Source: Amphiscolops sp. MND2022 | Lineage: Eukaryota | Assembly (NCBI GenBank): GCA_964187785.1 | Contig: OZ076411.1 | Coordinates: forward strand, 57,102,001-57,166,000 | Direction of reading: 5' to 3' | Length of the DNA stretch: 64,000 bases | In this document: piece by piece, positions 12,731 through 47,375 of the stretch | Layout: every line of letters starts with the position of its first letter | Numbering within the stretch: position 1 is the first letter of the stretch | Program-made: the position numbers and the translations under genes | Notes under the pieces: model-generated | What the model was told of the DNA's origin: nothing | Databases searched by the model: none | Seen by the model: the letters and a program-made list of their open reading frames with translations, nothing else

Positions 12731-13448
12731 GAGCGCATAGGCAAGCTTAATTTGCTCAAACCATAATTTTGTGCTTTCAATACCTCGGATTCCACGACCA
12801 TACCTTTAACCATGCAAAATTGGCAAATACGTCATAAGTCCCGGATTCCACGGATTTTGTCATGGATTCCAGTAACAAATGCTTAGCTGTACGCACTGTC
12901 GGCATGCCGCTGTGTCCCGGATTCCACAAAAACATAAGTTTTTCAAAACGAACCAATCAGATTGCAGAAATCATAAATTTCCTGGATTCCACTTTGTGCT
13001 TGACGCGATACGCGGCATCTCTTCTTCAATTAAGTTCAAGTGGAAGACTGAACAAACAGAATTCTATGCACTATTTTTCGTAAATAAATTCAAAATGATT
13101 CAGACTAACACACCAATATTACACAAATATTCGTATTTTTCGAAGTTTAGAACCAGTTTTGAACAAACTGCCAGATCGTCACAATCTGCCATTATTTGAT
13201 GACATGCTGCAATTTTGGTACCAGTCATGACTATCGCTCTTCGTATTTTGGGTTTTTTTGTGTCAAAACAATTTCCATTGATATAAAATTGATTTAATTT
13301 AAATTCTTCTGCCTTTCCAATACCGATCACTCAAAATCAGCGGACCAATCAGAGAGCAGCGGCGAAAGCGTCAATAGAGCAGCAGCATTGGCGTGGAATC
13401 CAGTCCCGGATTCCACGAAAAGCAGCAAAATAGCTTGCCTGTGCACTG
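12731..13448. mobile_element. Same MITE family, copy B, inverted relative to copy A and shorter
   Basis: TA|GAGCGCATAGGCAAGCT ... AGCTTGCCTGTGCACTG|TA, giving a TA target duplication. Confidence 0.85.
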
Positions 13449-18000: not shown

Positions 18001-18964
18001 GGCAGGATAAATGTCCTTGGCTTTTTTCTTCGCCTCTTGTAGCGCGACTCCCAACATGTCAGTCTGATCTTTATCATAAGGGGCATCCCGGGCACTTCCA
18101 TACGTATACGGTGCTCCTTGATTAATTGAGCCTCCGAACGATATTGTGAAATTAGCTCAAGACTTCCGTGGATCATGAGGGACAGCTGCACTCTGCAAAC
18201 CCTGCACCGCCATTTATAAGGAGATTTTTCTTTATCCAAAGGTCCAGTGGCAGAGAACTTCAAAACTGGATGTTTCTTAAGCATGCTTCCAGTTAAAGAA
18301 TATTTTGCTCGACGTCGTTTCATACGGGATAACGAAGTAATTTGTCCCGTTTCCTGTAGAATTGCCCTAGAGTCAGTGTGCGTTGATACTTCTTCTTGAC
18401 TAGAAGTGGCCAGCATGGTTGTTGGCGCTAGGTCATCCACAATTGCTAATCCCATGGGCTGATGTAGATCGATTTCCTCTCCAGTGAGGAAAGCTGGTGG
18501 GATTCTATCTAACACGTTTGACAAGACGAGAATCTCCTGTCTGGTTAAGCTAAGAGTAGGAAGCCCCGCATCCGCGTGACCAGGATCTTCCGGAGCATGT
18601 TGAATGTCTTTTTGTAAACGTATGTTTTCCGAACCCAGTGTAACATCTAGCCCAACCTTAGGTGAAGTTGAGGAGTTGAGGGAACATCATCATTGTCTTC
18701 AGTCTGGTGTAGAACTTGACTAAATGGAAGCGAAGGTGTCTGCGAACAGCATTGGGGAATCAAATCTTTAAACATACCTTGGGTAGAATTATCAAGCGTA
18801 TTGTCCACTGTTCTCAAAGGAGTTGTGGCTGTTGGAGAACCTGAAGTGGATTCTGCAGATGGATCTTTACCCTGGCGTTGATTTACGGTAGAGGTTGGAT
18901 CAGGGTCTTCGCCTAGAGGAAGATTAGGGGAAGTCTCAACTGCTATTCCTTCGACAATCTGCAA
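15083..18964 (-). pseudogene. G1 antisense accessory gene (zinc finger plus hAT-like body), spliced and decayed
   Basis: Exon 1 ends at 17795 (RERLF|GTAAGT). Exon 2 is 17652-17167, exon 3 is 17091-16957, exon 4 is 16888-16807. The last exon (~16260-15083) contains YRSFLSKLR and RPELFRLCKHSCLCL. In-frame stops and frameshifts are present; the 5' end and last acceptor are uncertain. Confidence 0.85.
16348..16572. repeat. Minisatellite of TACGTCACTATGCGG / GTGACG-N6-CGTCA units in intron 4 of the antisense gene
   Basis: About 7 degenerate units; inverted TGACG half-sites at 16373-16390 and 16443-16460. Confidence 0.85.
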
Positions 18965-19907
18965 AGGAGGAAGATTTGGTGTCCCTGAACCACTTCACCG
19001 ACCCTGGGATCCAGGTGTCGCAACTTCCAATGGAGTGTAAAGCTTTTAAGGGGAGTTGGAAGGAGTAACTTGAGCCGTATCTTGTTCAACTAAAACAAGT
19101 GATCTACTTCTAATGAATTAAGGGGAGTAGATTACGCAAGTGACTTCCGTTAAACATCAACTAAAACCGGACGCGCGGACAATGAAAAAATAACGAAAAT
19201 CACTTAGAAGTAAGAAACGGAAACGTTTCGAAAAAATTCTGAATCTGATCTAGAAGTTATTCTAATCATTTTCGGTTTGCAAGCCTGGCCAGCTTTACAA
19301 AAACCACAAAATCTCTGAACTGAACTAAAAATCAATTTAAAGTGAACTGAAACTTGTTAGACTTACGACGTGTCGGCTCAGGTGGCAAATCGCAACTCCA
19401 GAAATCATCCATGTGGTGTAAAGGGTGACCTTTTCGAGATCTCCGTGTTCCAGGTAAACTTGTTACTTGGTGAGGGTCCATATGCCAAAGACAAACAGAG
19501 AAGGAATGAAATTTGCGAGTGAAGAGTAAAGTTAGTGAGACACAAATACTGAAATTATGTGTGACAGTAGATGGAATGCTGATGAAGAAAAACAATTGGT
19601 TGAGGAAGGCAAAAGAAAATTGAAACTTTAGAAGTTGGAACTTTAGTTTTTTGAATGGAAACTTTACTTTGACAAAGTATTGCTGTATTAGGAACGAAAC
19701 AAGAAGGCGTGGCGTATAAATACGAAGCAAAAAAGCAACTGAAACAAGTTTCCGCAAATGTGCAAAGCAAATACTGGAATTTGATTGGCTAAATAAATGT
19801 CAATCACGTCTGCCAGCGTGATTAATTTACTCACTATAGACTTTGGATGAAAGAATACACGTGGAAATTTTACTGCAAAGCAAATTGGAACGATTTGATA
19901 TGCGAGA

Positions 19908-20072: not shown

Positions 20073-20289
20073 ACTCGGCATCCTACAGTTTTCGCTGTAT
20101 GCTTTCAAAGAGATGGAATTTTACTGCTAGTGGTTGGAATTGAATGAATAAGGCAGTATCACGTAATGTGATCAAGAAAGTACACACTTTCAATGACAAA
20201 CATGTGCGATAATGTTGATGTTTGATATACAAAGCCAGTGCTCTTTTGAACTTAATATGTTTGCAGAAGTTCAGACTGGTGGCAGCTCA

Positions 20290-21187
20290 TATGCTATGTC
20301 GGCGTTTGTGGGGGCAGCTGCGGTAACCCTTTTTCCACCCATTCCCCTCTTCTTCAACCCCAAAACGCCACTAACTTGTCTGGATCTCAGATTGAAGGGC
20401 AGTTAATAGAGTTAATTGACGAGCACCAAAGTCACCGGTCACGCCCCAACATCGTTTATCGACACTGAGTTTGAGGAGTCCCCTGAATTGTCTGATGACC
20501 AGGAAATGGAGGATAACCACTCATTAAATAGCTATAGTAGACCCTCCGCTACAATCTTACCAACCCCAAGAGGAAGAGGCCGAGGTAGAGGTCTGGTCTT
20601 ACGCCCAATATGAACCTATCCAACGGGGTTTTCAACAGAATCAGGGCAATTTCACTGTGATAGGAGAGAATACACAAGAAATACGAGCGAATAGTTTCAA
20701 CAATGAGTACACCAGCACACAAATTGGACTACAGATTACTAACCCAATCATGCCAACGGTCAATATTAGTAACCCCGCGACGATGATGATACAGATCCCA
20801 CCAATTATGCCCAGCTTCGCAGCAGTCCAAAGTGGTCATCCAGTTCAACCAATGCCACAGCCACAGCAAGTGACTTCAATGCAGACTAGCACCAATGACC
20901 AATGTGCTCTTGTTACCCTCAAACGAAAGGGACCTATACAAGTTGTCACCCACCGTCATGCCGACATCGCGGGATTTTGCAATTGGTGCGGTCGTACTGA
21001 CGACCAAATTGGCCGGAGAGTCTAGGAGAATATCTTCTGGGAACGGCGTACGATGCTGAGACAGTTAGGGACCGAAATATTCGGTCCCGGGCGTTCATCG
21101 ATGGGTTTGAGGTTGCCCTGTTTCGACTTCAAGTATGCAGGACTGTCGCAACCCAGGAGTTGCGTGATAGCCGTGGCCCATCAGTAA
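20290..21187 (+). pseudogene. G1 ORF3 (CxxCG-domain protein), frameshifted, ending inside the 3' LTR
   Basis: After correcting one 1-bp frameshift at ~21022, it reads CNWCGRTDDQIGRRVLGEYLLGTAYDAETVRDRNIRSRAFIDG, which aligns without gaps to G2 ORF3. The start is uncertain. Confidence 0.8.
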
Positions 21188-22687
21188 TCAACGCCAAACA
21201 AGATGGCAGCCAAAACCAACTCCCAAAGCTAGGAAGAATCAAAACTTTAAACCAGCGAACTACATTTTGTTTTGTTTATCCTGTTGGTTTTTGTCAGGAA
21301 GTCATGTAAATATAATATTTCAAAAATGTTTGCCTTGAAAGAAACCCTTCCTCATGCTGCTAATGAACATTAAAACTTCATTGACAGCCCTTATTTACAC
21401 ACACAATGAGTCACCCCTATCTCAAATGATATTGGACTTGGAAGCTTCAATACATTAGAAATCGTCCCCATATAGTAAATTGCATCTTAACATGGTACCA
21501 CTTTGCGGTATCATGCGGATCAAGGAGTGACGTATACTCGTCACCATGCGGACTTGTCGATATCATTATGCGGCATTATACGTTTCGAAGTGTGACGCAT
21601 ACTTGTCACTATGCGCTTTTTGCAGAGACACTATGCGGCATACTGCGGAACGAGTAGTGACGCATACTCGTCACTATGCGTTTCCAGCAGGACCAATTAT
21701 ATAACGTGAATACGTGTACTAGTGCTATTTGGAAAGCATCCCAAATACATTTGTTATGTTATCTTAAGCAATTTCCAGGGTTTCTTTAGTCCATTTCTCA
21801 ATGATATTTCGAAAGTCATGTAATCAAGTTGATGTTATAAGTAGTATGACGATATCTTGACGTAATCCTGTTTTTGTCTTTTTGCAACAATGACTTTGGT
21901 AAAAAAGGAGTGTCATGGTATTTTCGGAGTTATTTCATTGTGAACTGAGAGAGAGGATCATTCAAATCTCAACCGTCAACTAGTGCAGTTGTTCTCTTCA
22001 TACATCTGTAAACCTTATGGTAACATTGTGATACTCACAGATGTTGTTCTTTTGAATAGACAAGATAATTCAAATTCTTCCTCAAAAGCCAGAAACTATT
22101 TTTCACTCAAAGCAATATGGGAAACAGACGTAATAGACGTTCTAGAAAATTGGAAACCCCTTCTCCAGAGAGGGAATTAGAGAAAACGCAAGTGGAAACG
22201 TCTGTTACAGGCAAGGAGATTTCAACTAAATTGAATACGTTTGTTCAGGGAAATTCGAGTGAAAACATTTAGGAAAATCAGTTGACTGAACCCAGTCAAT
22301 TCAGCAATGAAATCCAAGTATGGACACAACTTATGGAACAAAAGAATGATGACAAAATTGAAAGAATGAGAGAAGAATTGGACAATAAACTAGAGGCTAT
22401 CTTGAGATAATTTAAGTCTAACAAAGCTACATCAACAGTAACAAACATAAGATCAGAAATCAACGAAATACAAGATTCACAACCGTGGGGATCCAAAACA
22501 ATAAGGTCAATTGGAGTTTGCATATCTAATATTGAAAACTCAGGTTCAGAAAACGACGATTATCCTCTCAGAGCTTCAAAAATGAAAGACTTGAAACATG
22601 CTGCAAATCCATTATTTCAAAACGAATCCGATGTAGACATAACGATACATTCAAACGAAGAATCCGACGCAGAAGAGGATTATCACA
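21144..22687 (+). repeat. G1 3' LTR (1544 bp), TGTCGCA...TATCACA; contains the gag start ATGGGAAAC at 22117
   Basis: Starts with the same TGTCGCA as the G2 LTR, 47 nt after the RAF motif (46 nt in G2). The end is fixed by the PBS junction at 7859. Confidence 0.75.
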
Positions 22688-22873
22688 AGTCATTTTCCGC
22701 AAATAGTGTCCGTGTCTGCTCACTAAGATGTCCCAAGAATGGCATAAACGGAATGTTCGACTATTTGAGATCCTCCCCCTCGGAAATTGAAGTACTGAGC
22801 GAGTCTGGGGGAGAATTCATAGTGGAACCGGGAAATGTACAAGAACTGGGTGAAAGATTCCGCATTGGAGGCC

Positions 22874-25334
22874 CAGCTCATATGCTATGTCGGCGTTTGT
22901 GGGGGCAGCTGCGGTAACCCTTTTCCCACCCATTCCCCTCTTCTTCAACCCCAAAACGCCACTAACTTGTCTGGATCTCAGATTGAAGGGCAGTTAATAG
23001 AGTTAATTGACGAGCACCAAAGTCACCGGTCACGCCCCAACATCGTTTATCGACACTGAGTTTGAGGAGTCCCCTGAATTGTCTGATGACCAGGAAATGG
23101 AGGATAACCACTCATTAAATAGCTATAGTAGACCCTCCGCTACAATCTTACAAACCCCAAGAGGAAGAGGCCGAGGTAGAGGTCTGGTCTTACGCCCAAT
23201 ATGAACCTATCCAACGGGGTTTTCAACAGAATCAGGGCAATTTCACTGTGATAGGAGAGAATACACAAGAAATACGAGCGAATAGTTTCAACAATGAGTA
23301 CACCAGCACACAAATTGGACTACAAATTACTAACCCAATCATGCCAACGGTCAATATTAGTAACCCCGCGACGATGATGATACAGATCCCACCAATTATG
23401 CCCAGCTTCGCCGCAGTCCAAAGTGGTCATCCAGTTCAACCAATGCCACAGCCACAGCAAGTGACTTCAATGCAGACTAGCACCAATGACCAATGTGCTC
23501 TTGTTACCCTCAAACGAAAGGGACCTATACAAGTTGTCACCCACCGTCATGCCGACATCGCGGGATTTTGCAATTGGTGCGGTCGTACTGACGACCAAAT
23601 TGGCCGGAGACTCTAGGAGAATATCTTCTGGGAACGGCGTACGATGCTGAGACAGTTAGGGACCGAAATATTCGGTCCCGGGCGTTCATCGATGGGTTTG
23701 AGGTTGCCCTGTTTGGACTTCAAGTATGCAGGACTGTCGCAACCCAGGAGTTGCGTGATAGCCGTGGCCCATCAGTAATCAACGCCAAACAAGATGGCAG
23801 CCAAAACCAACTCCCAAAGCTAGGAAGAATCAAAACTTTAAACCAGCGAACTACATTTTGTTTTGTTTATCCTGTTGGTTTTTGTCAGGAAGTCATGTAA
23901 ATATAATATTTCAAAAATGTTTGCCTTGAAAGAAACCTTCCTCATGCTGCTAATGAACATTAAAACTTCATTGACAGCCCTTATTTACACACACAATGAG
24001 TCACCCCTGTCTCAAATGATATTGGACTTGGAAGCTTCAATACATTAGAAATCGTCCCCATATAGTAAATTGCATCTTAACATGGTACCACTTTGCGGTA
24101 TCATGCGGATCAAGGAGTGACGTATACTCGTCACCATGCGGACTTGTCGATATCATTATGCGGCATTATACGTTTCGAAGTGTGACGCATACTTGTCACT
24201 ATGCGCTTTTTGCAGAGACACTATGCGGCATACTGAGGAACGAGTAGTGACGCATACTCGTCACTATGCGTTTCCAGCAGGACCAATTATATAACGTGAA
24301 TACGTGTACTAGTGCTATTTGGAAAGCATCCCAAATACATTTGTTACGTTATCTTAAGCAATTTCCAGGGTTTCTTTAGTCCATTTCTCAATGATATTTC
24401 GAAAGTCATGTAATCAAGTTGATGTTATAAATAGTATGACGATATCTTGACGTAATCCTGTTTTTGTCTTTTTGCAACAATGACTTTGGTAAAAAAGGAG
24501 TGTCATGGTATTTTCGGAGTTATTTCATTGTGAACTGAGATAGAGGATCATTCAAATCTCAACCGTCAACTAGTGCAGTTGTTCTCTTCATACATCTGTA
24601 AACCTTATGGTAACATTGTGATACTCACAGATGTTGTTCTTTTGAATAGACAAGATAATTCAAATTCTTCCCCAAAAGTCAGAAACTATTTTTCACTCAA
24701 AGCAATATGGGAAACAGACGTAATAGACGTTCTAGAAAAATGGAAACCCCTTCTCCAGAGAGGGAATTAGAGAAAACGCAAGTGGAAACGTCTGTTACAG
24801 GCAAGGAGATTTCAACTAAATTGAATACGTTTGTTCAAGGAAATTCGAGTGAAAATATTTCGGAAAATCAGTTGACTGAACCCAGTCAATTCTGCAATGA
24901 AATCCAAGTATGGACACAAATTATGGAACAAAAGAATGATGAGAAAATTGAAAGAATGAGAGAAGAATTGGACAATAAACTAGAGGCTATCTTGAGATAA
25001 TTTAAGTCTAACAAAGCTACATCAACAGTAACAAACATAAGATCAGAAATCAACGAAATACAAGATTCACAACCGTGGGGATCCAAAACAATAAGGTCTA
25101 TTGGAGTTTGCATATCTAATATTGAAAACTCAGGTTCAGAAAACGACGATTATCCTCTCAGAGCTTCAAAAATGAAAGACTTGAAACATGCTGCAAATCC
25201 ATTATTTCAAAACGAATCCGATGTAGACATAACGATACATTCAAACGAAGAATCCGACGCAGAAGAGGATTATCACAAGTCATTTTCCGCAAATAGTGTC
25301 CGTGTCTGCTCACTAAGATGTCCCGAGAATGGCA
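22874..25334 (+). repeat. Tandem copy of 20283-22744 (ORF3 + LTR 23735-25277 + 57 bp of flank)
   Basis: Offset 2590-2591 bp, about 99% identical by eye; 129-bp unique spacer at 22745-22873. Confidence 0.95.
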
Positions 25335-26901
25335 AAGAACGAAATCACAATTGCAGTTGCGGAGAACCTAAAAGCAGACCGAAAGCAAACCGGAACAGCC
25401 CAAGTCGGCGCCCCGCTCACGTTTCAAAAATATTCAGTTTTTAAATATGCAAAATGGCACTTTTGTTAAAGTTTCATCAAATTTACAGTTCCAAAAAAGA
25501 CGCAGAGGATATGCATATGACTCAAAAACCACTTTTTCCCCAAATGGAAATGGCAAAAAAACCTTTACCGAAAAAAACTATATCTTGCTCAACCGAAAAC
25601 TTCTCAAAAAACGAATAATTGAAACAATCACAAAAAAATGTCGGACAGTATTGATTTCAAAAAAAAAGGGTTTTTCAAAATCCATCCTGTTGCAAAATAT
25701 CAAAAAAAATGTATGGGGACTTTTCGAGACAATAAAAAGTTTTTGAAAAAGTCTTCCAAAGCCGAAAGGGAAAGAAAGCCGGGTGGAAGTCTTGCAGTGC
25801 CAAAAGAGTGGAAAGGGGACCCCTTTTGCTTTGGAATGGTTGCGTATTTCATGTTAGAGGCTTTGAATGCTTTCAAAATCAAGTACACGTTTGGTAAAAG
25901 TGCACATTGCACAAAAAGTGGACCGAATATTTGAAATAACGAAAAACAACTAGCCACTGTAAGAGTCGTGCTTTTTCTTCGAAAACGCGGACTAAAAATT
26001 ACATCAAACCATAATGCTGAATCACAGGGAATAGATTTTACATTTGCCAATTTTACATCGGATATTTTCTCTGTGGGCGTCTGTACACACTCTGTCATGT
26101 TACCTTTCTACATATTATCCTTGTGGCACGATGGTCTTACTTTTCATAAAAACACTTGAGTTCATCGAACTACACAAATTACCAGACAATACTGAATATA
26201 GCAAGGAAATAGATGCGGAAACTTTTTGTAATGCAAGCTGCGGTTAGAACCGTTATCCAGCTTTTCCATATTTGGGAATCATGCGAAGCCATGTCTATGA
26301 ATTTGTTACTTATAGCTATGAGCGTTGTATTATTGGATTAGCCATCGAAGGTACATATATTTGAAATTATTTGCAAACAGGTTAACCAGTTGAGTTCAAC
26401 CGTAACTGGGTTAAATCGGTATAATTTTCATGCTTCAAAAATGTCCTTCAGCAAAAGATACACATTTATATATTGTGGAAATGAAATAATTGTATTCGAA
26501 ATTGTGATACATACGTGCCATTGAGAAAAATTCCCCTTTTCAGATTAGGAGTTTATGTGTACTTACGTCAATAATTTACAAAACTAATTTGATGCATGAG
26601 AAAATATACATGGGACAGGACTGAGATTTCTAATTAAAGTCTCAAACAGAGGCCACCAAGTAAGAATCAAAATTGGCTGAACACCTATCAAATCAAGGTG
26701 TTGTCAGCTCTTTTTCGCACAAATGCATTATTTGAAGTTTTGAAATGCTTTCTTCAAAGTTTTTGAATATGTTCATCAACATGGGATTTGAAAACACACT
26801 TCCTCGAAAACACACTTTTGGAAATTTGCGTGTGTGAATTTTGGAATTCGGCTGTATTTCAGGTGAGGTTGACGATGGGATTTTAGGCAGCATTTACTTA
26901 C

Positions 26902-31992: not shown

Positions 31993-32694
31993 TTACTTTA
32001 ACATGTATGAAAGAACACCATAAGCTCCAAAAAGGATGACGATCAATAAATGGTGGATGCCGTAACCGTCGTCTTCATCACTATGATAAGAATCTACTGA
32101 ATTCTCTCTCTGACGATTTATATGGTTACTATTCGTCCCTACTGTCCTAGGGAAGTCTTTCTTGACGTCCAGGGACGTTTTCCCAGCGATTTGTTGATGC
32201 GGTCCATCTGACCTTAGGTCCCTATGTGGACGTACTTGTTCAAAAATTTTCGGATGCGGTCCATCTGACCTTAAGTCCAAATGAGTATTTTGGCTTTCTA
32301 ACACGTTCCTGATGCTAGGAATCACTTTCCCTTCAATTGCTGAGTCTATTGCATTTAAAATATGCGAATTAAGATCAGATCTCATTTCTTCTAATTTCCT
32401 GGACATTTGCGAAGAAATTTCTGAATTTATTGCTCTACTAGTTTCAACTGTAATTTCACTATTTTTACTTGCATTAGTATTCAATAAAGTCCTAAAATTC
32501 CCACTAATTGAGTTTACTTCCTTGTTGGATTTCCTTGAGTCTAAATTTAGACCAGTATCGCTAAGGTTTTCATCTCTAACTTGATCACTCTCTTGGTAAT
32601 TTCCCAACATTATATCTAAATTCTCAATATCTGACATAACGTCTGATTGTCTGGAACGCTTCTCTCTAGCTTTCTGCTTTCTAGTCGAAGGCAT
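31993..32694 (-). CDS. LTR-encoded Gag N-terminus (212 codons) reading out of the 3' LTR into flanking DNA
   Basis: Near-identical to the first 212 aa of gag up to DEDDGY, then continues GIHHLLIVILFGAYGVLSYMLK* in the flank. Expression is unknown. Confidence 0.6.
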   Translation of the reverse strand: MPSTRKQKAREKRSRQSDVMSDIENLDIMLGNYQESDQVRDENLSDTGLNLDSRKSNKEVNSISGNFRTLLNTNASKNSEITVETSRAINSEISSQMSRKLEEMRSDLNSHILNAIDSAIEGKVIPSIRNVLESQNTHLDLRSDGPHPKIFEQVRPHRDLRSDGPHQQIAGKTSLDVKKDFPRTVGTNSNHINRQRENSVDSYHSDEDDGYGIHHLLIVILFGAYGVLSYMLK

Positions 32695-33436
32695 AACAAT
32701 GGATTTGATGTTTCAACAGTGAATTCACTAATATCAATGTCAAATCAAAGTAGTCGTGTATCGTATATCAGTAATATCAATAATGATCCTTTCAACAACG
32801 GGTTCCTGGTATATATAGTTGCAGGACCATGACAATCATTATTTGGGACGTCAAGGTCCGAAAATATACGTGACGTCATGTTTACTATAAGTAGCTGAAG
32901 ATACACTACACGTCATATTACGTCAGCAGCTATAAATAGAATTAGAACAAGTTTAACTAGCTAACAGGCAACTTTGGTGACTACATGTGCATGACACTAC
33001 GTCATGTCAAACTAAACTAATCAACGGTTGAAATGCATGAAGAGGCATGGTGACCTAACGTCAGAGTGACTGCACTAAAGCACTGTGATTATAGGTAGCA
33101 CCGTATATATATGAACACTGTATGACAACGCGTCAACTAGACTGCAACGGCGAGTAGTTGACGCATTTTATTTAACATTATGGCAAACAAAAAATATTGC
33201 AAGTACTTTCATGGGGTCAACGTGACCTTAGGTCAAAACAGTAAGATAACTGGTTTCATGACTAAATGATTGCTAAATTGGATTAATATTGACAATTTCT
33301 TGTAAAACAATCTACATCAATCGTAGTTTGAGTTGTTTTAGTTTCTACAGTGGGAGCACTCCGGGTGCGGGACCAATTTGGAAGTCTTCGGGCATGACTT
33401 GATATAGCAAACCGTCACAGGCGGCAGCCTGCGACT
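32058..33436 (-). repeat. G2 3' LTR (1379 bp)
   Basis: Matches 46009-47344. The first base is T>A mutated; a short purine run (GGGGAA) lies upstream as a weak PPT. Confidence 0.95.
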
Positions 33437-34160: not shown

Positions 34161-35976
34161 CTGCTCACTATATCGGCTGAGAAGAATTTTCTTAGCAATT
34201 TTGATTTCAGAGGAAGTAGGACTGATTTTAAGGTATGTTTCGATGAGAATGGTGTATTGGGGTTGTTTTGACTTAAGGTCTAACCTCAAGATTTGCGGGA
34301 AAATGGAAAGGAAAGCCCCGCGAAGCGTCTCCTTAAATCTTCCTATTTAGGGTAGAACTGAATGAATAAGTCATCAACAATTTAGTGGTCGTGTCACTTA
34401 ACGAGGTGTGAAGCATCACTTAAGATTATTTGCCTTCCTTCTTCAAAGGCTCATAAAGCGGTGTTGGCCAGTAGCAGAAGTCTTGACTGCTATTAGCGTT
34501 TGTCAACAACGCAGTTCAAAGACTGATGGTCGGTCTGACTACCTCGTTTGTGGTAACCAATCAGGTGAATTTGGAGTAAAATACGATTAGTCGGAGATAA
34601 TTGAAGATTCGCTATGATTTAACCAATTTTCTGGAGGCAAAGCCCTAGTGAAAGTGTACCTATAATATAAAAGAATAAATGTACAAATGGATCATGTGAT
34701 AGATTTTAGACAGTAATTCGTGGTTAAAATGGTAGTACTCCGCTGGCAGGTCGGGTACCCATGTTCAGTGTAAAACATTTCAACAGTAATGTGTTTAAGG
34801 TACTGGCGTAATGGTAGATTATAGCCACGACTCTCTATTTAAGGTTATATACAGTGCCAATTTTAGATTGTACGTGAAGGGATACTAATAAGTGTGATGG
34901 CGGATGAGAGGTATTTAGGGTAATTGGCCGTGGTATTTGGTGCAGTCAATTATACCAAAGGTCCAGTAGTGGAAATAAGGTCTGATAATTTGATGGTTGC
35001 AGTCCCAATTAAGATGAGTCTTATTTCATGTAAAACGTACATGCATGCATTATGGTGCAGTCCTTTTGACCATTGGTCATTTATAGTGAAGCTGATCCAC
35101 CTCTTCTGGGAATTGAATACATGTATTCGTTTACAGTCAAGGAGAAGTATTGTCTGATTACGTAAGCAATGCTAGGTAAATAATAGGCAGCGTTCAACTG
35201 CGAGTACATTGTGACTAAACAAATATACCATATTATTGACAAGCAGCAACAGAAATTACGTCATTTGAAAGCTGTACCGTAGGTAACGCAATTGTCTATA
35301 TGTTTGTTCTGCTATTAGTACAGTTTCAATTCCAAGTGACTTGTGGTAATAAATCGCAGTTTCCAAGTAGCATCACTTAAGCTGTATCAATTTCTTCTGG
35401 AATTTGATATTGTCTTTCTGACCTTGGGACAGCCTTTTATCCTCATTTTCCTTATGATCTTTCGGAGTCACCGACATTCATAACACTGCTGTCAGTTTGA
35501 CCTAACGTCATTTGAACGTAGTTTCGTTTCAACTCCGTCTAATTGAATAATTCAATTGTCCCTATTTTACGTCTCTGGGATTGAACTACTGCGTTGTTGT
35601 TGATTCGACTGAGGACAACCGTGTTTCTCCAAACTATTTTAATTCTGCTTCTTTTGAATTGTAAATACAAATTAGCCTTGCGTTTATCCTCTCTGGGATT
35701 ATCTCTGGTTCTGGATTGTCAACCGGACTGAAGGTCACATCACGTATCTTCGCTGGAAGGAGCTATCACGACCATTTGATACGACAAATTACTGCCACAA
35801 TAGAGCGGAATTCAGACCTCCCGTCATCGAAGTATCTTCAGGTTGGTTCTTTTTAAGTGTTAAAATCTAGCTTGATCAGGGCTTTCATTTAACTAAGTTT
35901 CTTCCTCCATCGTGAAAACGTACTTAGATGTGTGAAATTTTAAATCTACTTCCGGAAGTTGTTTGAATGCGGTAAG

Positions 35977-38900
35977 ATGGATACTTTTGCAGGAAGCGAA
36001 CCGCGATTATTCATTTCCTTTCATTTAGAAAACGAAGCAAATGGCCAACCAGCTCAGGAAGCAGAAGAAATCATGGACACTAGCTCTCCCAATTTAGCAC
36101 GTAGAGAAAGAGGTGACAGTACATCAAGTGATGAAATCGAAGTGATCGAGATCACTTTATCCAGTCCCGAATGTACAAACGTTGAGTTAACTCGTCCGCC
36201 TGTTGTGTCAGTAAAAATTGAGCCGGAGATCACGGAGTCACAATTAGTCGCTGAAATCCGAAGGAGAAGTGGATTTTCAAGTAACAGCAGTACTGGCTCT
36301 GACGAAAGTTGCGGAGCATACCTGACAAGAAAACTAGGCGAGTTGGAAAAAGCAGCACAGCCAGAAGTTTCAAACGAGACCACTAGTGAAGTCAAGCAGA
36401 GTGAAAGTGAGCCAATTATTCTTCGTCCCGGCCGTAGCCCGACAGCTGGGGTAACTGTTGAACCTCCCAGGAATCAGGCTCCCTCTGGACTGACACAGAC
36501 TCTTTCCCTGGCCAAATTTATTGGCACAACCTCTAGCCCTGGTGATAAGGGTAATAAGCCAGGTGAATCGGCTGACTTCTACGAGTTCACATTTGCTCCA
36601 GCACCAAAACACAAATCCGTCCGCAGTGAGGGAGAATGCCGTCCAAATGACCCTACGTCCTCGGGCCAGATCAGGCACTTCGTAACTGAGACCCAATCAG
36701 TAAGTGGAACTGAAGTCCCAATGTTGAGTGATCATGACTCTACCCGATACGCGCGGTCAACATTGGCAGAAGCACTGGCACCTCCCGAGGTTTAGAACAT
36801 TCCTTATGATAGTGGTGAATCTGACTATGAGTCGACTGTGCGGATACCTACAGCAGCAATTAGGGAGGCTCCTATTTCCATTAGTAGCAAGGAAACACTC
36901 CGCAAATGCTTCAGTGAGACAAATCCCATAAGTCTTGCACAAGGGCACCCGACCGTGGCGTTTAACCAGGAACAGATGTGCCAAATATTGAAAGTGTTTG
37001 CTGACGAGACGGCTAAATCAACCTTTAGGATGATGAATAGTCTCATCGAGAAAGCTAGTCGACTTAATTTGAACCAGGGCCCCTACGCTTCCAATAGCAT
37101 GCATCGACCCAAATCTTTTCAATCGACGTGTACTGATTCAGAAACTGACCGTTATAAACTGCGTCACAGGACCCCGACTAAACAAAGTGACTTTTAGGAC
37201 ACTGATTACTCATGCGAGCAAACTCCCAGTCGAACGTCAGAGGTCAACATCCCAAGTCCTCCAGTACCTGGTTGCAGTCGAGATGACCCTCGGTCTCCTG
37301 AGTTAGGGCAAACCATAGACAGTCCAGGAGCTCAGACTTTAGCCGAGTTAAAGCGAGAAGCGGCAATGAGTAAAAATAAAGGAAAAAGGAATTCTAAGCG
37401 CCCAAACAGTTCAAAGACAAAGAAAGCAAAGAAGTCCGTGTGGAGGTCTAACAAGGTGATGCGCGAGGAATTATTTGAAGGCATGGGTTGAGCAAGAACA
37501 TTCGTTTCTGGACCAATGGACCCCAAATGGAACCCCTACAAGTTTTACTGCCAAATTTGTAAGGGAAATGTATCTATCTACGGCAGAGGTGCTAAGGAAA
37601 TACTCAGACATCACGCAACAGAGCGACACCTGCGCAGGGACCAACGATGGCGTTACGAACACCTGTCAGTAGAAGATCCAGCCACAAAAACATTTCGTCA
37701 CTACGTCAGTGATAAGAATGGTAAACTTTTGACACCTTACGAATTGGAACTAGAGTATCCGAAGTTCAAAGACAAAGCTCTTGTCGACATTGGTGAAAAG
37801 CTACCATTTTACGACGAGGCCATGGCAGGCAATACCCACATGACGTCTTCGTCTGAAAGCAGAGTACGAGTACAGATTTCGATTTTGGGACACTTCCTAC
37901 CTAACTTCGGTGACCTCAGGTCAATGCGCAGCTTGTGGCAGGACATAGGAATCGTCGTCAACCATCAAGCCTTGTTCTCTGACTTCAACTGGGGAAAAGA
38001 ACGCCTCTCAGTAAGTCCTCATGAAACAACTTGATCTTTTGATATGTTGGTACTTTCCACAAATCATGTATCACTTTACGGTACTGCTGTTCTGAGCTAA
38101 GGTTACTACTCGAATCCCCTCATTAGCATTCCGTATTTGTGTTTTCAGGTCCTGTTTCATCACATATTCGTGCGGATGCTGGATGACCTAGGACACTACA
38201 TCGTGGCTGAAGGGCAATTTGCTGTAGAATTTGAATTGAAAGGTCTGTTCCTCTTCTTGCACTTGCGATTCTGGCGCGACAATCAGCTATGCCGTGTCGT
38301 CTTGAAAAGGACAGGGCGAACTGTCGGAAAATTCCAAGCTGAAAAACACCTTTTCTTCAGCCTCTTGGGAGCCATTTCAGCACGACCCAATCCAGTTTGT
38401 GCCAGTGGATGTTCACTTGAGTTCGTTCAAGAACTGGACGAGGGTCCCTTGTTCACATTTGGGGTGCAAAGCTTCAAACGCTTTGACGAGGTGTCACTGG
38501 CCAAGATGATGCACAAGGACAGTTATTCCGTTTTTGGGCGAATTGACTTCTTTTCCGTACTGAAATATCTCGTCGTCTCGCTCGGAGGCAGCCTGGACAT
38601 GGAGTGCGTCTTGCTAGCCCCCGAGTTATCCAAGGTTAGGATCTTCCATTGTTTTGGGTTTTCATGCCTGACTTTGGGTCTCAATGCTTGGGTTGTTTAT
38701 AGGCTATCAGAACATGCCAACTAGACGTTTCCAAACTCCATGTACTCTGTCAGGAATTGTTGAAGCACTGGAAGTCGATCGTGGAGTTCCTCACTGCGCA
38801 TTCGCCAAAGCAGCAGATGCAGGGAGTACACAACCAGGTTGGGATTAAGTCAAATAGACCTTTGGTCAAACATTCAAATTCCTTCACAGCGATCAAATGT

Positions 38901-40144
38901 CTCTTGTTTCCAGCCCCAGAATTTGGAGGGGTCGATTATTGGAGATGAGCTCTTCACCAGCCGACTAGGGCTTTTCCAACGATTGACACGGGATTGTTAG
39001 TTTTCTCCTTTCATTTCATGCGCATTTTATCTCATCGAACTGACCTTTGGTTTGTTTAGATGCTAACGCCTTTTCACTCAGTCTGTCGGGCCGGAGGGAT
39101 AGATCCTTTTATACGTATCGTCAACTCTGCCAATTTCTTTACAAACTTGCGCGACGATGTTCCACGCCACAAGATTTGCCTCCCGAGGAAAATTGGCCCG
39201 AAATTCTCAATTTGGAGTTGAGTACCACAACTGCGCTCAGTTTCACAATTTTTCTTTCCCGAGCCAAGTTTGGTTCCAAGTTGGATGCCTGCAAAATCAA
39301 AGCTGGACTTGACAGATTAGATAATTCCAACGCAGGGCTGTCCATCGGCACACTGTCCAATAGAAATAAAGAGGAGTTTGGAAGGGCAGCACGCAGTTAC
39401 GTCACCTTTTTATTTATTTCATTTCAGGAACTGAAGGGGCTAACTAATGACCTCGTTAAAAACTTGGGTTGCTTTGATTTGGAGATCCTTTTGCTTGGAC
39501 CCATTGCACACGCAACTTACTGTCATGCTCAATTATTTACCAGTTTCCGATTACGAGGCTACTTTACTACAGATCAGGAGACTGCAAGTGGTGAAGAATA
39601 TTTGTCTTTCCTGGATGATCTGAGACGTACTTATTCAGAATTGGCGCAGCCTACTTTACTGATTCCTGACACTGTTAAATTTCATGTTGAATTGCCTTCC
39701 CTGCATAGTCGTCCTTTGCTCTACAAACTTTTTCGTTTGGCGTGTTTGTGCCTAGATGAGCCGTTTCCTGTTCTGCCCAGTGTGAAATTTGGATCAGTGA
39801 GTTCTGACGATCCTACTAGCAGTCTTATTGACGAGATTTTACCCGTCCAGTCTTATTTTGCCAATGTACCTCACAGTATTGATGCTGTTACGACCGACCA
39901 ATCCGTATCTGATTTCCTTCGTCTAGAACCTGATTTCGCTGATGGCGGACTGAGTGATACATATTGTCCCTGGCACAGTGTTAACGTCTTTGGACGTTCC
40001 AAAATCCTTGAACAGCTATCTTCCGATCGTAGTAGGCCACAAACTTCTGTCAGTTTTGCTGTCAATAAAGTTGTTGAGAGCAGTAAGTCTCACGGGACGT
40101 CCAAGTCATCTCCCAAGAAGAGCAGTAAGCGTCCTAGTCAATAG
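35977..40144 (+). pseudogene. G2 antisense accessory gene, 5 exons (35977-38010, 38149-38634, 38703-38837, 38914-38995, 39060-40144), ~1270 codons, with three premature stops in exon 1
   Basis: All introns are GT-AG (138, 68, 76, 64 bp) and the frame is continuous after splicing. Zinc finger Cx2Cx16Hx5H at 37549-37629. In-frame stops at 36793, 37195 and 37489. The start codon is uncertain and the original stop may be at 40210. Confidence 0.88.
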
Positions 40145-40406
40145 TCCCCTAATAAAGAAGTGGTTCCATCCGCGAAGGCCTTGTTGACTCCTAGTAGCTC
40201 TAAAGTCTAATTGTACATAATGTACAATTGTGTGCTATATTTTGTATATTTGTTGGTTTATTTCTCATATTTATGTTCTTGTATTATCTGTTTGCTGTTT
40301 GGTTGAGTTTTGTCATTAATTTCGTTCAGCTGTGAGTCAGATCAGGCCCCATAAAAATACAAGTTGTTGAAAGAAGAACCACGGGGCAGTAAATTCAGTT
40401 TTCCTT

Positions 40407-43400
40407 CTAGTATCTGTGTTCATCAGTAAAGTTTGGAGTAGGGTTAGGACGTAGATTATATTTTCCTCCCCTGGGACTTTCATTTTCTACAACCATTTCA
40501 TCACTTTCATTGCTTTGCGGTCATAGTATTCTTTGTACTTTAAGTACGACTGCATGATGTTTTTCTTCGTTTTATCGATCAGAATTTGTGTACGTCGTTG
40601 TAATTCTTCGGCAAAATCCGTTGTTGGGAGAATTTTCGGGTTGGGATTTAAGCCCAACCGGTGGTCTAGAATGTTATACGGTACTCTTCCATGGAAAATT
40701 CTGGAAGGTTCGCATCCTAGACTTGAATGATAGGTCGTATTGTAGTTGAGGACAGCCAATGGTAGATACTTGTGCCATTGGCGACGGTATTCACCGGAAG
40801 CCATTTTTAGGTTGCCCTTAAGACTGGCATGAGTTCTCTCTAATTTACCTATCGTCTGAGGATGCTTCGTCGTTGCACATTTGATCTGAATACCCAGAAT
40901 TTTTGCGACCTCGTCGACTAGACGTGAAGTAAAGGCTGTTCCTTTGTCAGTAATCAGAGTTGTTGGTAAATATGCATGCCTTGTCATAATATCAATAAGT
41001 ACTCTTGCGGTACTAGAGGCTGAAGCGTCAACTACAGGATAGGCGAAGAGGTATCTTGAGAAGACATCCAGAGCAGTAATGACATTTTCATATCCCCCAC
41101 TCGGTGGGAGGTTAGGTAAAAGGTCAATTTGTAAGGCGTCTTCAGGACCAAGATCCCATTCAGGTAAATTAAGTAGTTCAGGCGTGATTGATGGGTTTTT
41201 GATTCTTTTGTCTTTTATGCAGATTTCACATCCTTGGACCTACTTTTGACGCTTTTTGCTATTCCAGGGTAGTAATATTTTTGACGAATTTCATAAAGCA
41301 TCTTGGAGATTCCTGGATGTTTATTCGTCATTCCATGTAGTGAGTGGAGTAGCTCCGACACAAGGTGTTTAGGTAAGAGCGCCTGTCTGTATAGGACTCT
41401 TCCTGTTTCGTCATAGTAGTCTCTAGTGACAACGTCATCCTGAACGGACAGACGGTCAATTTGACTGCAGTAATGTCAGAAGCGCGAATCTTGATGTAGA
41501 ATTGTTTCAGAAGATTCTTCTTTCTGCAGTTTGAGGCGTAACTGGTGTAAAACCACGTCGTTTTGTTGCTCAATAGCCATGGTGGTAGAAGTTGACAGCA
41601 TCTGCAAACTTGTCATTTGTGAAGAAGCACCCCTGTGGGCACTGAGTTTCTCTAGGGAGATATCAGGTAATTGATTTGTTGGATGAGACCTGGCGTCCTT
41701 TTTACGTTGCCAGATTTGTTCCTCAGTTTCCTCATCCTCTTCAGTGTAGAAAATTTGGTCTTCTTCTGTCACTCCGGCCGATTGGACGTTGAGTTCAATG
41801 GGAGTGGTTGATATATCTTCGCGTATACGGAGTACAAGTTTTTCTTTAGGACAAAGCTCCAAACGAGACAAATAGTCTGCTGCGGTGTTATTTTTGCCTG
41901 GTATGTGGGCAATTGTGAAACTGAACTGAATAACGTAGTCACACGCGTTCCACAGGGTTGGTGGAATGATTTTAGTTTGGAAAAAGCGAGTGACCGACTT
42001 GTTGTCTGTTAGGATTATCACCGGTTTCAGGGTCCCCCAAAAGATATGCCCAAATTCCTTGAATGCGAAGAATATCGCTAAGAACTCTTTCGCTTAGATA
42101 GACATTTTCAGTTCGGTGGGACTAAAGGTCTTGGATCCATATGCTACGGGTGCGAAAGACTTTCGCGTTGAAGTATACTTCTCACTTGGATCGTCCTCGA
42201 TGAGAACTGCGTAACCTGTCGCCAAGAAGCTAGCATCAGTCATTAATGCTATCTGCTTATTAGGCAGAGGTTGTTTGAGTGCAAGTTCACAACATCGGTC
42301 AAGAGCTTTGTTGATCTCGGTGAATTGTTCTAACAGATCGGGTGTCACTATGACTTTGGCATCGTTTTTCAGTAGTTTGAAGAATGGTGTAAGTTTCTCT
42401 GACAGCCTTGGGATATAATTGCGATAATAATTGAGGAATCCCAAGTATCGCTCGAGAGCCGTTTTGGTTTTGGGAAATTTGGTCTTCTCTAGGAAGTTTT
42501 GGACTCTGGGTCGTTGTGGCCGCACTCCTTCAGGAGTGATGGTACGTCCCAGAAAGTCGATTTCCTTGGCGCCAAAGTGGCATTTGTGCATCGTGAGTTT
42601 GAGACCTGCAGTCCGGGTGCACTGAAACGTAGCTGTAAGGTTTCGAATCAGCTGCTCAGCAGTGTTTGCCGCGATTCCGATATCATCGACGTCCTGTGCG
42701 CATTGGTCAGCTTTGATCACCTTGTCTAAATAGCTCGAAAAAGCAGAAAGAGCTCTGCTGAGACCTTGCGCCAATCTGCGGTATGCGAATGTCCTGCTAG
42801 CAAAATTGAATGCAAGCATCTCGATGGACCTCTGGTCCGCCATTTGTAGACAATGATATGCCTGCGAACAATCTAATTTACAGAACAGGCGTTTGCCTGC
42901 CATGTGCTGTGCGGCGTCCGTTAAAGTACTCAAAGGATGATTGTTGTTGATATAATCATCAGAGATCAAATATTTGATCTTGCGAAGATCGACCAAGAGT
43001 CGTAATTTGCAATTTGGTTTTTTCTGGGCAAAGATTGGACTTGCATATTTAGAGAATGGAAGTGTGGTTATGATTCCATATCGATGTAGGAGGGCTATTT
43101 CGACGAGAATATCTTCTTTGAGATTAATTGGCGTTAGAAGGCTTTGACTATAAGCTGGGGATTCGTCTTTAGGTGTGAGCTTGACCTTGAATTCCTCGTT
43201 CATGCCTATATCAAATCGGTGTCTCGCAAATATGTCATGAAATTCGCCGAGTAACTCTTCAATTTGGGTGATTTCAGCTGGTTGCAACGTAGAGTCTGTC
43301 CAGTCAAAATTGGCAAGGAATTGGTTTCTAGACTCAGGGTCATCCTGAGGGTTGAGTTTTTCCAGTTCCTGGAGGTTTTGTAGTTCCTTCAGGATTCGTT

Positions 43401-44860
43401 GCTGAATCGGGGTATGGAGCTGAGGGTCTCCAGGTTCTTCTGGTGTAGGAAACTAGTAGTTTTCTTGGTCTTCCCCAGTCCCTGTAGATTGAATCAAACT
43501 GCTTGCGTAATAGGCAGCATTTTCTGGATTATCTTGCAGGAGGTGCCATGTGGTAACCGCGTCAATGGGTTTGACGTACTTCATTTGCTCTGGCGTCATG
43601 ACAGAAAAAGTGGCAATGTCCGAACCCCGTTTGAGGGTATATGGCTGATCAGTGAAATTATTCACGTGGATCGAAACCTGACCTTGGGTCAGTGTGACTA
43701 GAGCGGCGCAAAAGGCTATATCACCGTCCTCAGTGAGGGCGTTGCTCAGTTGGAGGATTCCGGTGACATTAGTGTCAGCATATATATTGGAGTACATGGA
43801 GACCACGTGTCTGTCATTGGGCGGGATAATATTGTCCTCGCGTATAGTGACAGGTTCCATGACGTTAGTGTACTTGTGGTCCGCTGTCTTCAACTGCATA
43901 GAAAAGAATTGGAATATTAAAACTCCCTGCCTCATGTCCAATATAGTATTATTCCTTTGAGGAATGAAAGACCAATTAGCGGACTTGTGAGCCTTTCCAT
44001 GACTATGAATATCTCGTGGAATTCGATGTCCCCGACTTCAAATTTGAGTTCAACAGTGCTCTTTGGGGTTTCCAGTTGTCCATTGGCAACCATTATCTGG
44101 AAGTTGGGTGCTGGTCCCTCTTTGACTATCGACTGGGGGGCTAATAATCGGATTTTACGTAGATCAGCTTCTGGGATCGCACTAGATAGAGCTCCCGTGT
44201 CTACTAGGCCATCTAATGTTAGTTCGCCAAAATCCATGGGAAAATAAAGCATACGTCTCTTATACTTTAGTCCAAGATTTGATGTCAACGGAACATAATC
44301 GGGTTCACCGTCTCGTGAGATTAGGATGTTCACAAATCGTTCCTCTACGGTTGCAGTCAATGTGACCACAGGTCCATTTTGAGAGAACTCTTTCGGTGGG
44401 TCTTCCTGAGTGACCAAATTGGTGGCAGCCCATTCCTCTTGCCAAGGGTCTACGAGAGCCTTGGTCAGAGCTGGGTTGAGATTTTTGTCGATTTCGTTGG
44501 AATCTAGTTCTGTTTCCAAAGGGTTTTTGTGGAAATTGGTATAGAAATGGAGGTGATGTTGGTTGTAGATCTGAGCGTCCCAACAAGGATCGAAACCGAG
44601 ATCTTTATCGCGGTAGTATAGGTTATAGTCATCTATAGGAGGTAGAGGTCGGATAGTAGTAGTATTACCTTGCAGTCTGTCGGACTGATGGTCCAAGTCA
44701 ATTAAATTGGTGGGAGTATTTTTCACCTGCTGCTGCCAGTCAGCTGATGAGTTTGCTTTAAGGGATGAGTAGTATTCGATGTAATATATAGTAGAAGGGT
44801 CAGAAATTATGTACTGTCTGACGCGTAGTTTACCATTAAAGCAGAGTCGTGGCGAATCTA
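40407..44860 (-). pseudogene. pol: G2 pol (protease, RT, RNase H, integrase with C-terminal deletion)
   Basis: LVDTGA; RLLVDLRK, FAYRRLAQGL, DVDDIG (YVDD mutated); MTDASF; HPGISKM; TDKGTAF...KLERTH; ends KYNLRPNPTPNFTDEHRY*. Confidence 0.95.
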
Positions 44861-44867
44861 GTTTTTT
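44861..44867 (-). promoter_or_regulatory. Predicted -1 frameshift slippery site A AAA AAC before the gag UAG
   Basis: The -1 frame is open from this site through the protease ORF to 43932. Confidence 0.75.
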
Positions 44868-45994
44868 GGGTTTTTGAGGATAGACGTGGTGGGTTTGTTA
44901 TTGTTGGAGTCATCTTGACTCATAGTAGTTTCTCCTGGTTTGGAATTTTCCAAATTGAGGTTTTTGGGCTTGAGGTGAGCTCCAGCGCCTTTCCAACATC
45001 GTTCCGCCGGGTGATTTGTTTTGTCGCAAGTCGGACATTTTGGATATTCTTTCTTGGTGTCCTGCCCTTCAATGCGGCGTTGTTCCTCCTTTCTTTTGAG
45101 TTTGCGGCAGTCGTCTTTGACATGCCCGGGTTTTTTGCAGTAATTGCAAGTAATTTTTGGGTCAATGCCAGATGAGAGGAGGCCAGTACCCGGTCGTGTT
45201 GTTGTCGGGGCTGTGGACATTGTGGGGACGTGGATGTCGTCGCTTTCCTCAAGTCCATTCAACTCCAATTCACGTTCGAGGTGTGTGACAATCTCTGCGT
45301 AGGTCGCATTTTCAAGTCGCGCCATATTGACTGAGCGTTTCAGTTTGGGCGGCAGTTTAGCATAAAGCAGACTGTCAATCATTGCTTGAGCATGTTCCCT
45401 AAAGGCTTTTTCAGCTCCTTGGTTAAGTTCTTCAAGGAAATCGGGCAATTTCATAGTATTCGGGTCAAATACTAGTTTATGCCACTTGTGTTTGGCAGTT
45501 GCCTGAGACTCAGCTTTGACATATTTCCTACGGAAGACCGCTAGTATATCTTCCAAGGTTTGTCAATTGGTTGAATTGATGTTACGGAATGTCTGTAGAG
45601 CGTTTTTGCGTAGCAATGAGTGAAAATGGTTGATTTTCATTGTTTCCGTGATGTCTGGTTGCATTTTTATCATCGTATGAAAAAGATCTTCAAACAGTTC
45701 AAATTTTTCAGATTTGCCATCAAATGTCAGTGTTGTCGTACTAAATGGTCGTACCATCAGTGTCTGTGCTGATGGTTTGTTGTTCATACCCATAATCACG
45801 TCAGCAAGTCGATTAATGGGGTCTATTGTTGGTTCGGAAGGTACATCTCGGTTATTGGTGGGGACTGTTGGGAATTGCGCCGGGATGGTTGTGTCAAGCG
45901 TATCGTCGGTGACACACTGTTGGTGTGAACTTTTATTTCGAAATTGCATGGGCCGTCCGGTCAGGAACTCAGGGACCATTTGAGGGGTAAGGTT

Positions 45995-46008
45995 GGCTCC
46001 TGTTACCA
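45995..46008 (-). promoter_or_regulatory. G2 primer-binding site TGGTAACAGGAGCC, translated within gag as MVTGA
   Basis: Immediately follows the LTR end ...TTACGACA. Confidence 0.9.
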
Positions 46009-47344
46009 TGTCGTAACCGTCGTCTTCATCACTATGATAAGAATCTACTGAATTCTCTCTCTGACGATTTATATGGTTACTATTCGTCCCTACTGTCCTA
46101 GGGAAGTCTTTCTTGACGTCCAGGGACGTTTTACCAGCGATTTGCTGATGCGGTCCATCTGACCTTAGGTCCCTATGTGGACGTACTTGTTCAAAAGTAT
46201 TCGGATGCGGTCCATCTGACCTTAGGTCCAAATGAGTATTTTGGCTTTTTAACACGTTCCTGATGCTAGGAATCACTTTTTTTTCAATTGCTGAGTCTAT
46301 TGCATTTAAAATATGCGAAGTAAGATCAGATCTCATTTCTTCTATTTTCCTGGACATTTGCGAAGAAATTTCTGAATTTATTGCTCTACTAGTTTCAACT
46401 GTAATTTCACTATTTTCACTTGCATTAGTATTCAATAAAGTCCAAAAATTCCCACTAATTGAGTTAACTTCCTTGTTGGATTTCCTTGAGTCTAAATTTA
46501 GACCAGTATCGCTAAGGTTTTCATCTCTAACTTGATCACTCTCTTGGTAATTTCCCAACATTATATCTAAATTCTCAATATCTGACATAACGTCTGCATG
46601 TCTGGAACGCTTCTCTCTAGCTTTCTGCTTTCTAGTCGAAGGCATAACAGTGGATTTGATGTTTCAACAGTGAATTCACTAATATCAATGTCAAATCAAA
46701 GTAGTCGTGTATCGTATATCAGTAATATCAATAATGATCCTTTCAACAACGGGTTCCTGGTATATATAGTTGCAGGGCCAAGACAATCATTATTTAGGAC
46801 GTCAAGGTCCGAAAATATACGTGACGTCATGTTTACTATAAATAGCTGAAGATAGACTAAACGTCATTTTACGTCAGCAGCTATAAATAGAATTAGAACA
46901 AGTTTAACTAGCTAACAGGCAACTTTGGTGACTACATGTGCATGACACTACGTCTTGTCAAACTAAACTAATCAACGGTTGAAATGCATGAAGAGGCATG
47001 GTGACCTAACGTCAGAGTGACTGCACTAAAGCACTGTGATTATAGGTAGCACCGTATATATATGAACACTGTATGACAACGCGTCAACTAGACTGCAACG
47101 GCGAGTAGTTGACGCATTTTATTTAACATTATGGCAAACAAAAAATATTGCAAGTACTTTCATGGGGTCAACGTGACCTTAGGTCAAAACAGTAAGATAA
47201 CTACTTTCATGACTAAATGATTGCTAAATTGGATTAATATTGACAATTTCATGTAAAACAATCTACATCAATCGTAGTTTGAGTTGTTTTAGTCTTCGGG
47301 CATGACTTGATATAGCAAACTGTCACAGGCGGCAGCCTGCGACA
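46009..47344 (-). repeat. G2 5' LTR (1336 bp; ~42-bp deletion relative to the 3' LTR near 47293)
   Basis: TGTCGCAGG...GACA; the deletion is flanked by AGT microhomology. Confidence 0.95.
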
Positions 47345-47375
47345 GTGGATGATGAATGTCATTGTAATTCCGAAA

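Follow-up and report, generated by a model that had tools for sequence, protein, structure and literature searches.

A conserved, intron-containing antisense gene of likely hAT origin, exchanged as a cassette among Ty3/Gypsy retrotransposons of Amphiscolops

The window analysed here is a 64,000-nt stretch of the Amphiscolops sp. MND2022 genome (contig OZ076411.1, positions 57,102,001 to 57,166,000). In it, two Ty3/Gypsy retrotransposons, G2 on the minus strand and its more decayed relative G1 on the plus strand, each carry a multi-exon gene antisense to gag-pol, hereafter the cargo gene. From these copies and their relatives elsewhere in the genome, we consider it fairly probable that the cargo gene is a conserved, intron-containing antisense gene of a recently active Ty3/Gypsy lineage, that it is exchanged as a cassette, and that it encodes a hAT-derived protein without the conserved DDE triad, which would regulate its own element by binding DNA in the nucleus. 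The gene is laid out in the window as follows.

35977 to 38010, plus strand: G2 exon 1, with a long low-complexity N-terminal part, a basic patch, the zinc finger and a conserved linker; stops at 36793, 37195 and 37489
37549 to 37629, plus strand: zinc finger, C-x2-C-x16-H-x5-H
38011 to 38148, plus strand: G2 intron 1, phase 0, GT-AG, 138 nt
38149 to 38634, plus strand: G2 exon 2, 486 nt, predicted RNase H-like core
38635 to 38702, plus strand: G2 intron 2, phase 0, 68 nt
38703 to 38837, plus strand: G2 exon 3, 135 nt
38838 to 38913, plus strand: G2 intron 3, phase 0, 76 nt
38914 to 38995, plus strand: G2 exon 4, 82 nt
38996 to 39059, plus strand: G2 intron 4, phase 1, 64 nt
39060 to 40207, plus strand: G2 exon 5, encoding a predicted helical domain similar to the C-terminal half of hAT transposases and, after it, a low-complexity tail rich in basic residues; reading stops prematurely at 40142
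15095 to 19123, minus strand: G1 cargo copy, with exon 1 ending at 17795, internal exons at 17652-17167, 17091-16957 and 16888-16807, and exon 5 from 16194

All six internal exons lie where the original prediction had placed them, each preceded by AG and followed by GT, with intron phases 0/0/0/1 in both elements. At the protein level, exons 2-4 of G1 and G2 share only 13-17% identity, and their proposed gapless alignment scores 43 (ungapped BLOSUM62) versus -222 ± 31 for shuffled sequences, a value reached by 0 of 20,000 shuffles. Translation also confirmed that both window copies carry stops, at the four positions listed for G2 and at 17568 and 16989 in G1, which has frame breaks in exons 1 and 5 as well. 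The gene end formerly set at 40144 proved to be a premature stop, since similarity to a relative extends to about 40207.

We searched the 1.07-Gb genome with exon-2 queries, which returned 5237 candidates for G2, 3427 for G1 and 3862 for an outside protein; only 150 candidates per query were scored, and a fourth clade, D, was found in a further search with an outside homolog. In total, 72 loci of 10 kb were examined, 20 each from clades A, B and C and 12 from clade D. They were chosen across the identity range and mostly for a stop-free exon 2, so that the sample is biased to intact copies; as they were found via the cargo gene itself, the counts do not give its frequency among pol copies. An integrase lies downstream of the cargo gene on the opposite strand in 68 of the 72 loci, and the remaining four are truncated copies collinear with their relatives. 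Long terminal repeat (LTR) pairs were found in 19 of 20 elements with both flanks, which places the gene, antisense to gag-pol, in the stretch from pol to the 3' LTR, the position that defines the antisense open reading frames called aORF-3R. The paired LTRs are 96.5-100% identical, four of them at 100%, with 5-bp duplications in most. The carrier family is large and recently active.

Splice signals were tallied over 60 clade A-C loci (58 fetched loci plus G1 and G2; two truncated loci were dropped). GT-AG borders are present in 53, 53, 58 and 57 of them for introns 1 to 4, respectively, and the rest are GC-AG or damaged. The GC-AG cases are intron 2 of L041, L045, L046 and L049 and intron 1 of L055, and the commonest donor hexamer is GTTAGT (61/240), followed by GTAAGT (44). 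Of the 60 loci sampled from clades A-C, seventeen have a fully open gene and GT/GC-AG borders at each of the four introns. The introns range from 62 to 1582 nt and short introns align at about 0.4-0.65, the background level, while the exon lengths are fixed. Exon 1 of G2 is 73% identical to the open exon 1 of a relative without a frame break, and its ATG and the peptide MDxFxGSxPRxFISFxL are preserved across clade A.

Exons 2-4 of 57 copies (three more were dropped for frame breaks) differ at about 0.3, 0.15-0.2 and 0.58 of the first, second and third codon positions. The median ratio of non-synonymous to synonymous change (dN/dS) over 48 pairs is 0.056-0.154 in every bin of synonymous difference (pS) from 0.1 to 0.7. 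Exon 2 contains one stop in the gene frame versus 319-516 in each other frame, which is partly due to the picking of loci. In the parts outside the picking, the medians are 0.055 for exon 3, 0.107 for exon 4 and 0.097 for the last 30 codons of exon 1 (19, 11 and 16 pairs). These ratios, the open copies and the contrast between background-level introns and fixed exon lengths bear out the earlier claim of functional cargo under long purifying selection, which had called for dN/dS below 1 and for intact copies elsewhere in the genome. Judged from its sequence, the cargo is a strongly conserved antisense gene that is predicted to be spliced.

Introns that are antisense on the genomic RNA escape the spliceosome and are therefore carried through reverse transcription. 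Clade D, which offers the strongest internal test of the gene model, shows that they also change. Here intron 2 is missing, and 11 of 12 loci have a 621-nt exon that is exactly 486 + 135; therefore, the junctions are confirmed and the exon structure is not invariant. Intron 4 is missing in some clade D copies as well, and the two that were examined, L165 and L167, are continuous across its position. The exon structure that had been described as exactly conserved is so between G1 and G2 and in three clades, whereas an invariant structure for the whole family had to be rejected. Extra intron-like stretches are found within the N-terminal part of the clade D copies (L161-L172). The family displays spliceosomal introns persisting, appearing or vanishing in a reverse-transcribed genome. 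The broken state of both window copies might suggest accidental splice-like signals and similarity, or a nested transposon decaying neutrally. This explanation is refuted by the selection data (dN/dS of about 0.1), and the shuffling result, the fixed exon lengths beside saturated introns and the exact fusion exon of clade D likewise leave it hardly any credibility.

An exon-5 profile search returned 801 clusters at 50% identity, of which the ten checked were ENA records. Two outside homologs, P0076 and P0096, have best matches of 42% and 29% in the present genome and both read through the exon boundaries; therefore, other genomes likely have the family too, in a form with fewer introns. The first search for longer, spliced or named homologs gave three proteins and none was found among proteins of 777-2215 aa, which is weak evidence, and a metagenome scan with one outside homolog as the query gave no match.

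The cargo protein, of 950-1290 aa, resembles hAT transposases (Hermes, PDB 8edg; the Buster/FAM200-ZBED5 and DUF4371 types) in the order of its parts: a zinc finger that may correspond to the BED/TTF type, an RNase H-like core, and a predicted helical C-terminal half that may correspond to the hAT insertion domain and PF05699 region. The four ligands of the finger are conserved in 33, 34, 34 and 33 of 34 open copies from the four clades, and the finger lies where hAT fingers lie. It has a weak Pfam match to zf-C2H2_ZN292 below the cut-off, yet no zf-BED match was found in the Pfam scan. Exon 2 is predicted to fold as a helix, three antiparallel strands, a helix, a strand and a helix, which is the RNase H-like catalytic fold of the hAT group. 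Evidence for hAT families comes from two separate parts of the protein and from two methods. In contrast to hAT transposases, the cargo copies have no conserved CxxH, and no column where strand 1 or strand 4 ends, or beyond the R-x-x-L...C-L motif, reaches 85% D/E, the equivalence to the DDE positions being drawn from motifs and fold ranges. The cargo protein likely descends from a hAT-type transposase and would be catalytically dead.

Every sequence-profile test was negative, and this favours an alternative in which a selected gene took its RNase H-like fold from another DDE family or from a captured host gene, the hAT matches being convergent. Pfam scans of the exons and of 72 outside homologs detected no relevant family, PF04195 (Transposase_28, as in Retand TRP28) included, and sequence searches of the PDB gave no match. 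Local profiles against 30 host hAT loci did not outscore reversed sequences, hhalign and hmmsearch against Tip/ZMYM1-like and Ac-like hATs were negative, the PF14291 genome search matched nothing anywhere, controls included, and repeated Foldseek runs on exon 5 gave nothing clear. Moreover, Cas9 RuvC and actin-like folds equal Hermes for exon 2. However, convergence would have to produce hAT likeness in two parts by two methods and in the right order, with the finger placed as in hAT transposases, and we regard it as rather improbable. The host's own hAT transposase frames (L173-L180) are single open frames of 419-697 aa with catalytic motifs, none detectably close to the cargo.

The trees of reverse transcriptase (RT), integrase (IN) and cargo, compared over 26 copies with sufficient RT and IN, all recover clades A, D and B+C, and cargo and RT distances correlate (Spearman 0.88). 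Within clades, the cargo and pol trees conflict. For L052/L057, L056/L067, L083/L088 and L039/L041, the IN and RT pS is 0.00-0.09 versus 0.62-0.97 for the cargo; in L083/L088, identity is 98.9% over the LTR plus a second accessory ORF and 99.3% on the gag side, compared with 66-78% over the cargo region. In approximately unbiased (AU) tests on 14 clade B and C copies, with the tested groups taken from the other gene's tree, the cargo data reject pol-sister pairs (p-AU 1.4e-4 and 7.6e-10) and the RT data reject four cargo clades (p-AU 6e-6, 7e-5, 9e-4 and 5e-7). The near-identical backbones with diverged cargo and these rejections therefore indicate that the cargo is swapped as a cassette among backbones of the same clade and that old alleles move. 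Vertical inheritance, as originally proposed, thus holds between the deep clades, while its strict form within clades is ruled out. Template switching would be the simplest mechanism. Recombination also occurs inside pol, as the IN and RT of L062 group with different relatives (L056/L067 versus L065).

Deeply diverged alleles on one backbone could also reflect a role in competition or self-limitation, in which a dead transposase would repress rival elements or its own copies and many old alleles would be held under frequency-dependent selection. Antisense transcription itself could damp the element (PMC7264820). On the other hand, every sampled clade has the gene and so do the youngest insertions, which is the pattern predicted for a factor beneficial to its carrier, so we consider such a limiting role quite unlikely.

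What the protein may act on is suggested by repeat arrays. In clades B and C, one intron is long because of tandem arrays: intron 4 in clade B (445-744 nt) and intron 2 in clade C (730-1582 nt). Intron 4 of G1 is 612 nt and contains an array at 16337-16579. Across 11 clade B and C elements, the core motif of the array is also present in the LTR and the 5' region and nearly absent from the exons and pol, whereas no arrays were found in eight clade A elements. By analogy with known systems, the reading of the cargo protein as a DNA-binding regulator that keeps its carrier expressed has close to an even chance. In such a history, a hAT transposon or a hAT-derived host gene would have ended up in reverse orientation between the pol and 3' LTR of an ancestral carrier, and would have lost cutting while retaining the zinc finger and the protein scaffold. 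A promoter between the cargo gene and the head-to-head second ORF would drive a spliced mRNA, and the protein would bind the short repeated motifs of its element (long intron, 5' region and LTR in clades B and C) and thereby keep it expressed against host silencing. Template switching between co-packaged relatives would then spread old alleles among backbones. More tentatively, a class I element may have turned a class II transposase into its own sequence-specific counter-silencing factor, encoded antisense and spliced, in which introns are gained and lost while the element is mobile and whose ancient alleles are shuffled among backbones as an arms-race cassette.

The cargo gene and the second ORF diverge across about 1.6 kb, which by its layout is likely the promoter region. 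Non-coding blocks at the cargo start stay similar across clade A while the flanks diverge:

35842 to 36028 (span 35820-36030), plus strand: conserved block upstream of and across the start codon, with a donor-like CAG/GTTGGTTC and an acceptor TTTAG

This block may include an additional 5' intron behind a short initial exon, or it may consist of promoter elements. For clade A, a hairpin spanning the start codon was rejected, as it was no better than shuffles in four of four sequences.

Matrin/U1-like C2H2 fingers can bind RNA. The same gene, with the same likely hAT origin, could therefore act later, as a Rev- or CERV-like RNA export or packaging factor, or as a nuclear or chromatin tether for the integration complex. 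The basic patches ahead of the finger and at the C-terminus would suit such a role, as would the strong conservation in array-free clade A elements, and CERV is a reported precedent (PMC10309623). Nevertheless, hAT fingers are established to bind DNA, and cargo alleles 30-40% apart work with nearly identical IN and gag, a poor fit for a tight IN partner; we consider a late role unlikely, although it is the main rival. If instead the protein binds its own element, an animal retrotransposon would be carrying its own counter-defence or activator.

Genes of the aORF-3R kind, between pol and the 3' LTR, are described from plant and fungal Gypsy elements, such as maize Grande gene23, rice RIRE2, Retand TRP28 (PF04195) and Boty (PMC7264820, PMC11963269). 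According to PMC7264820, their origin is mostly unknown and untraceable to other transposable elements, and their function is an open question. What sets the cargo apart is its three to four or more spliceosomal introns (the word "intron" is absent from the main text of PMC11963269), the lack of a TRP28 match, its likely descent from a hAT element, its occurrence in an animal and its exchange as a cassette. The family suggests a likely origin for an aORF, namely another transposon's enzyme. Unlike dead hATs domesticated by a host, this one would have been domesticated by a retrotransposon.

VANC of VANDAL (PMC5735166) and Spm TnpA (10.64898/2026.08.24.746577) are likewise accessory proteins borne by a transposable element. 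Their elements have tandem motif arrays in non-coding regions, and these arrays vary from one related family to another, as do those of the cargo carriers. TnpA derives from a transposase and regulates without catalysis. VANC and TnpA belong to plant DNA transposons and their action is demonstrated, whereas the cargo belongs to an LTR retrotransposon, its binding is predicted and clade A lacks arrays. A counter-silencing cassette, if confirmed, would be the animal retrotransposon counterpart of these plant systems. HBZ of HTLV-1 is a spliced retroviral gene. HBZ and APH-2 (PMC11963269) resemble the cargo as antisense accessory genes near the 3' end encoding nuclear regulators, a role predicted for the cargo, but they are small, bZIP-type and driven by the 3' LTR, while the cargo is far larger, multi-exon and of unrelated fold, with a predicted internal promoter region. 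Planarian Burro elements may also have an antisense transcript. Literature searches, mostly without subscription papers, supplements or repeat databases, listed no paper on an antisense gene with several introns and a hAT origin from any LTR retrotransposon of an animal. The function of the cargo should be readable from natural contrasts, since the family offers thousands of candidate copies along with young insertions, and since alleles have been swapped naturally while the backbone stayed the same.

Both carriers show the Ty3/Gypsy order of gag zinc knuckle, protease, RT, RNase H and integrase (rve), and the LTRs of the lineage have TG...CA ends with target-site duplications of 5 bp, within the 4-6 bp expected of such elements. 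The remaining features of G2, whose LTR pair is 94.7% identical, are given below.

32058 to 33436, minus strand: 3' LTR, adjoined by the target-site duplication GTGGA at 32053-32057
[quoted passage not shown]
40487 to 46663, minus strand: disrupted gag and pol, with zinc knuckle, protease, RT, RNase H and integrase
about 45991 to 46008: primer-binding site
46009 to 47344, minus strand: 5' LTR, with GTGGA next on the plus strand at 47345-47349

The second accessory ORF (about 300-370 aa; 20528-21025, plus strand, in G1) has a C-terminal C-x2-C...AF...CD block conserved in clades A-C and gave no match in Pfam scans. The gag frame of G2 (46663-45991, minus strand) opens about 220 codons within the 5' LTR and continues in frame across the primer-binding site; a copy of this gag-start ORF lies at 32712-31993, and the same ORF is found in the LTRs of relatives. 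In G1, the 3' end, including the second ORF and the LTR, is duplicated in tandem at 99% identity (20283-22754 and 22874-25345), and the pol region contains an inverted duplication of about 87% identity (9349-10294 and 12728-13423).
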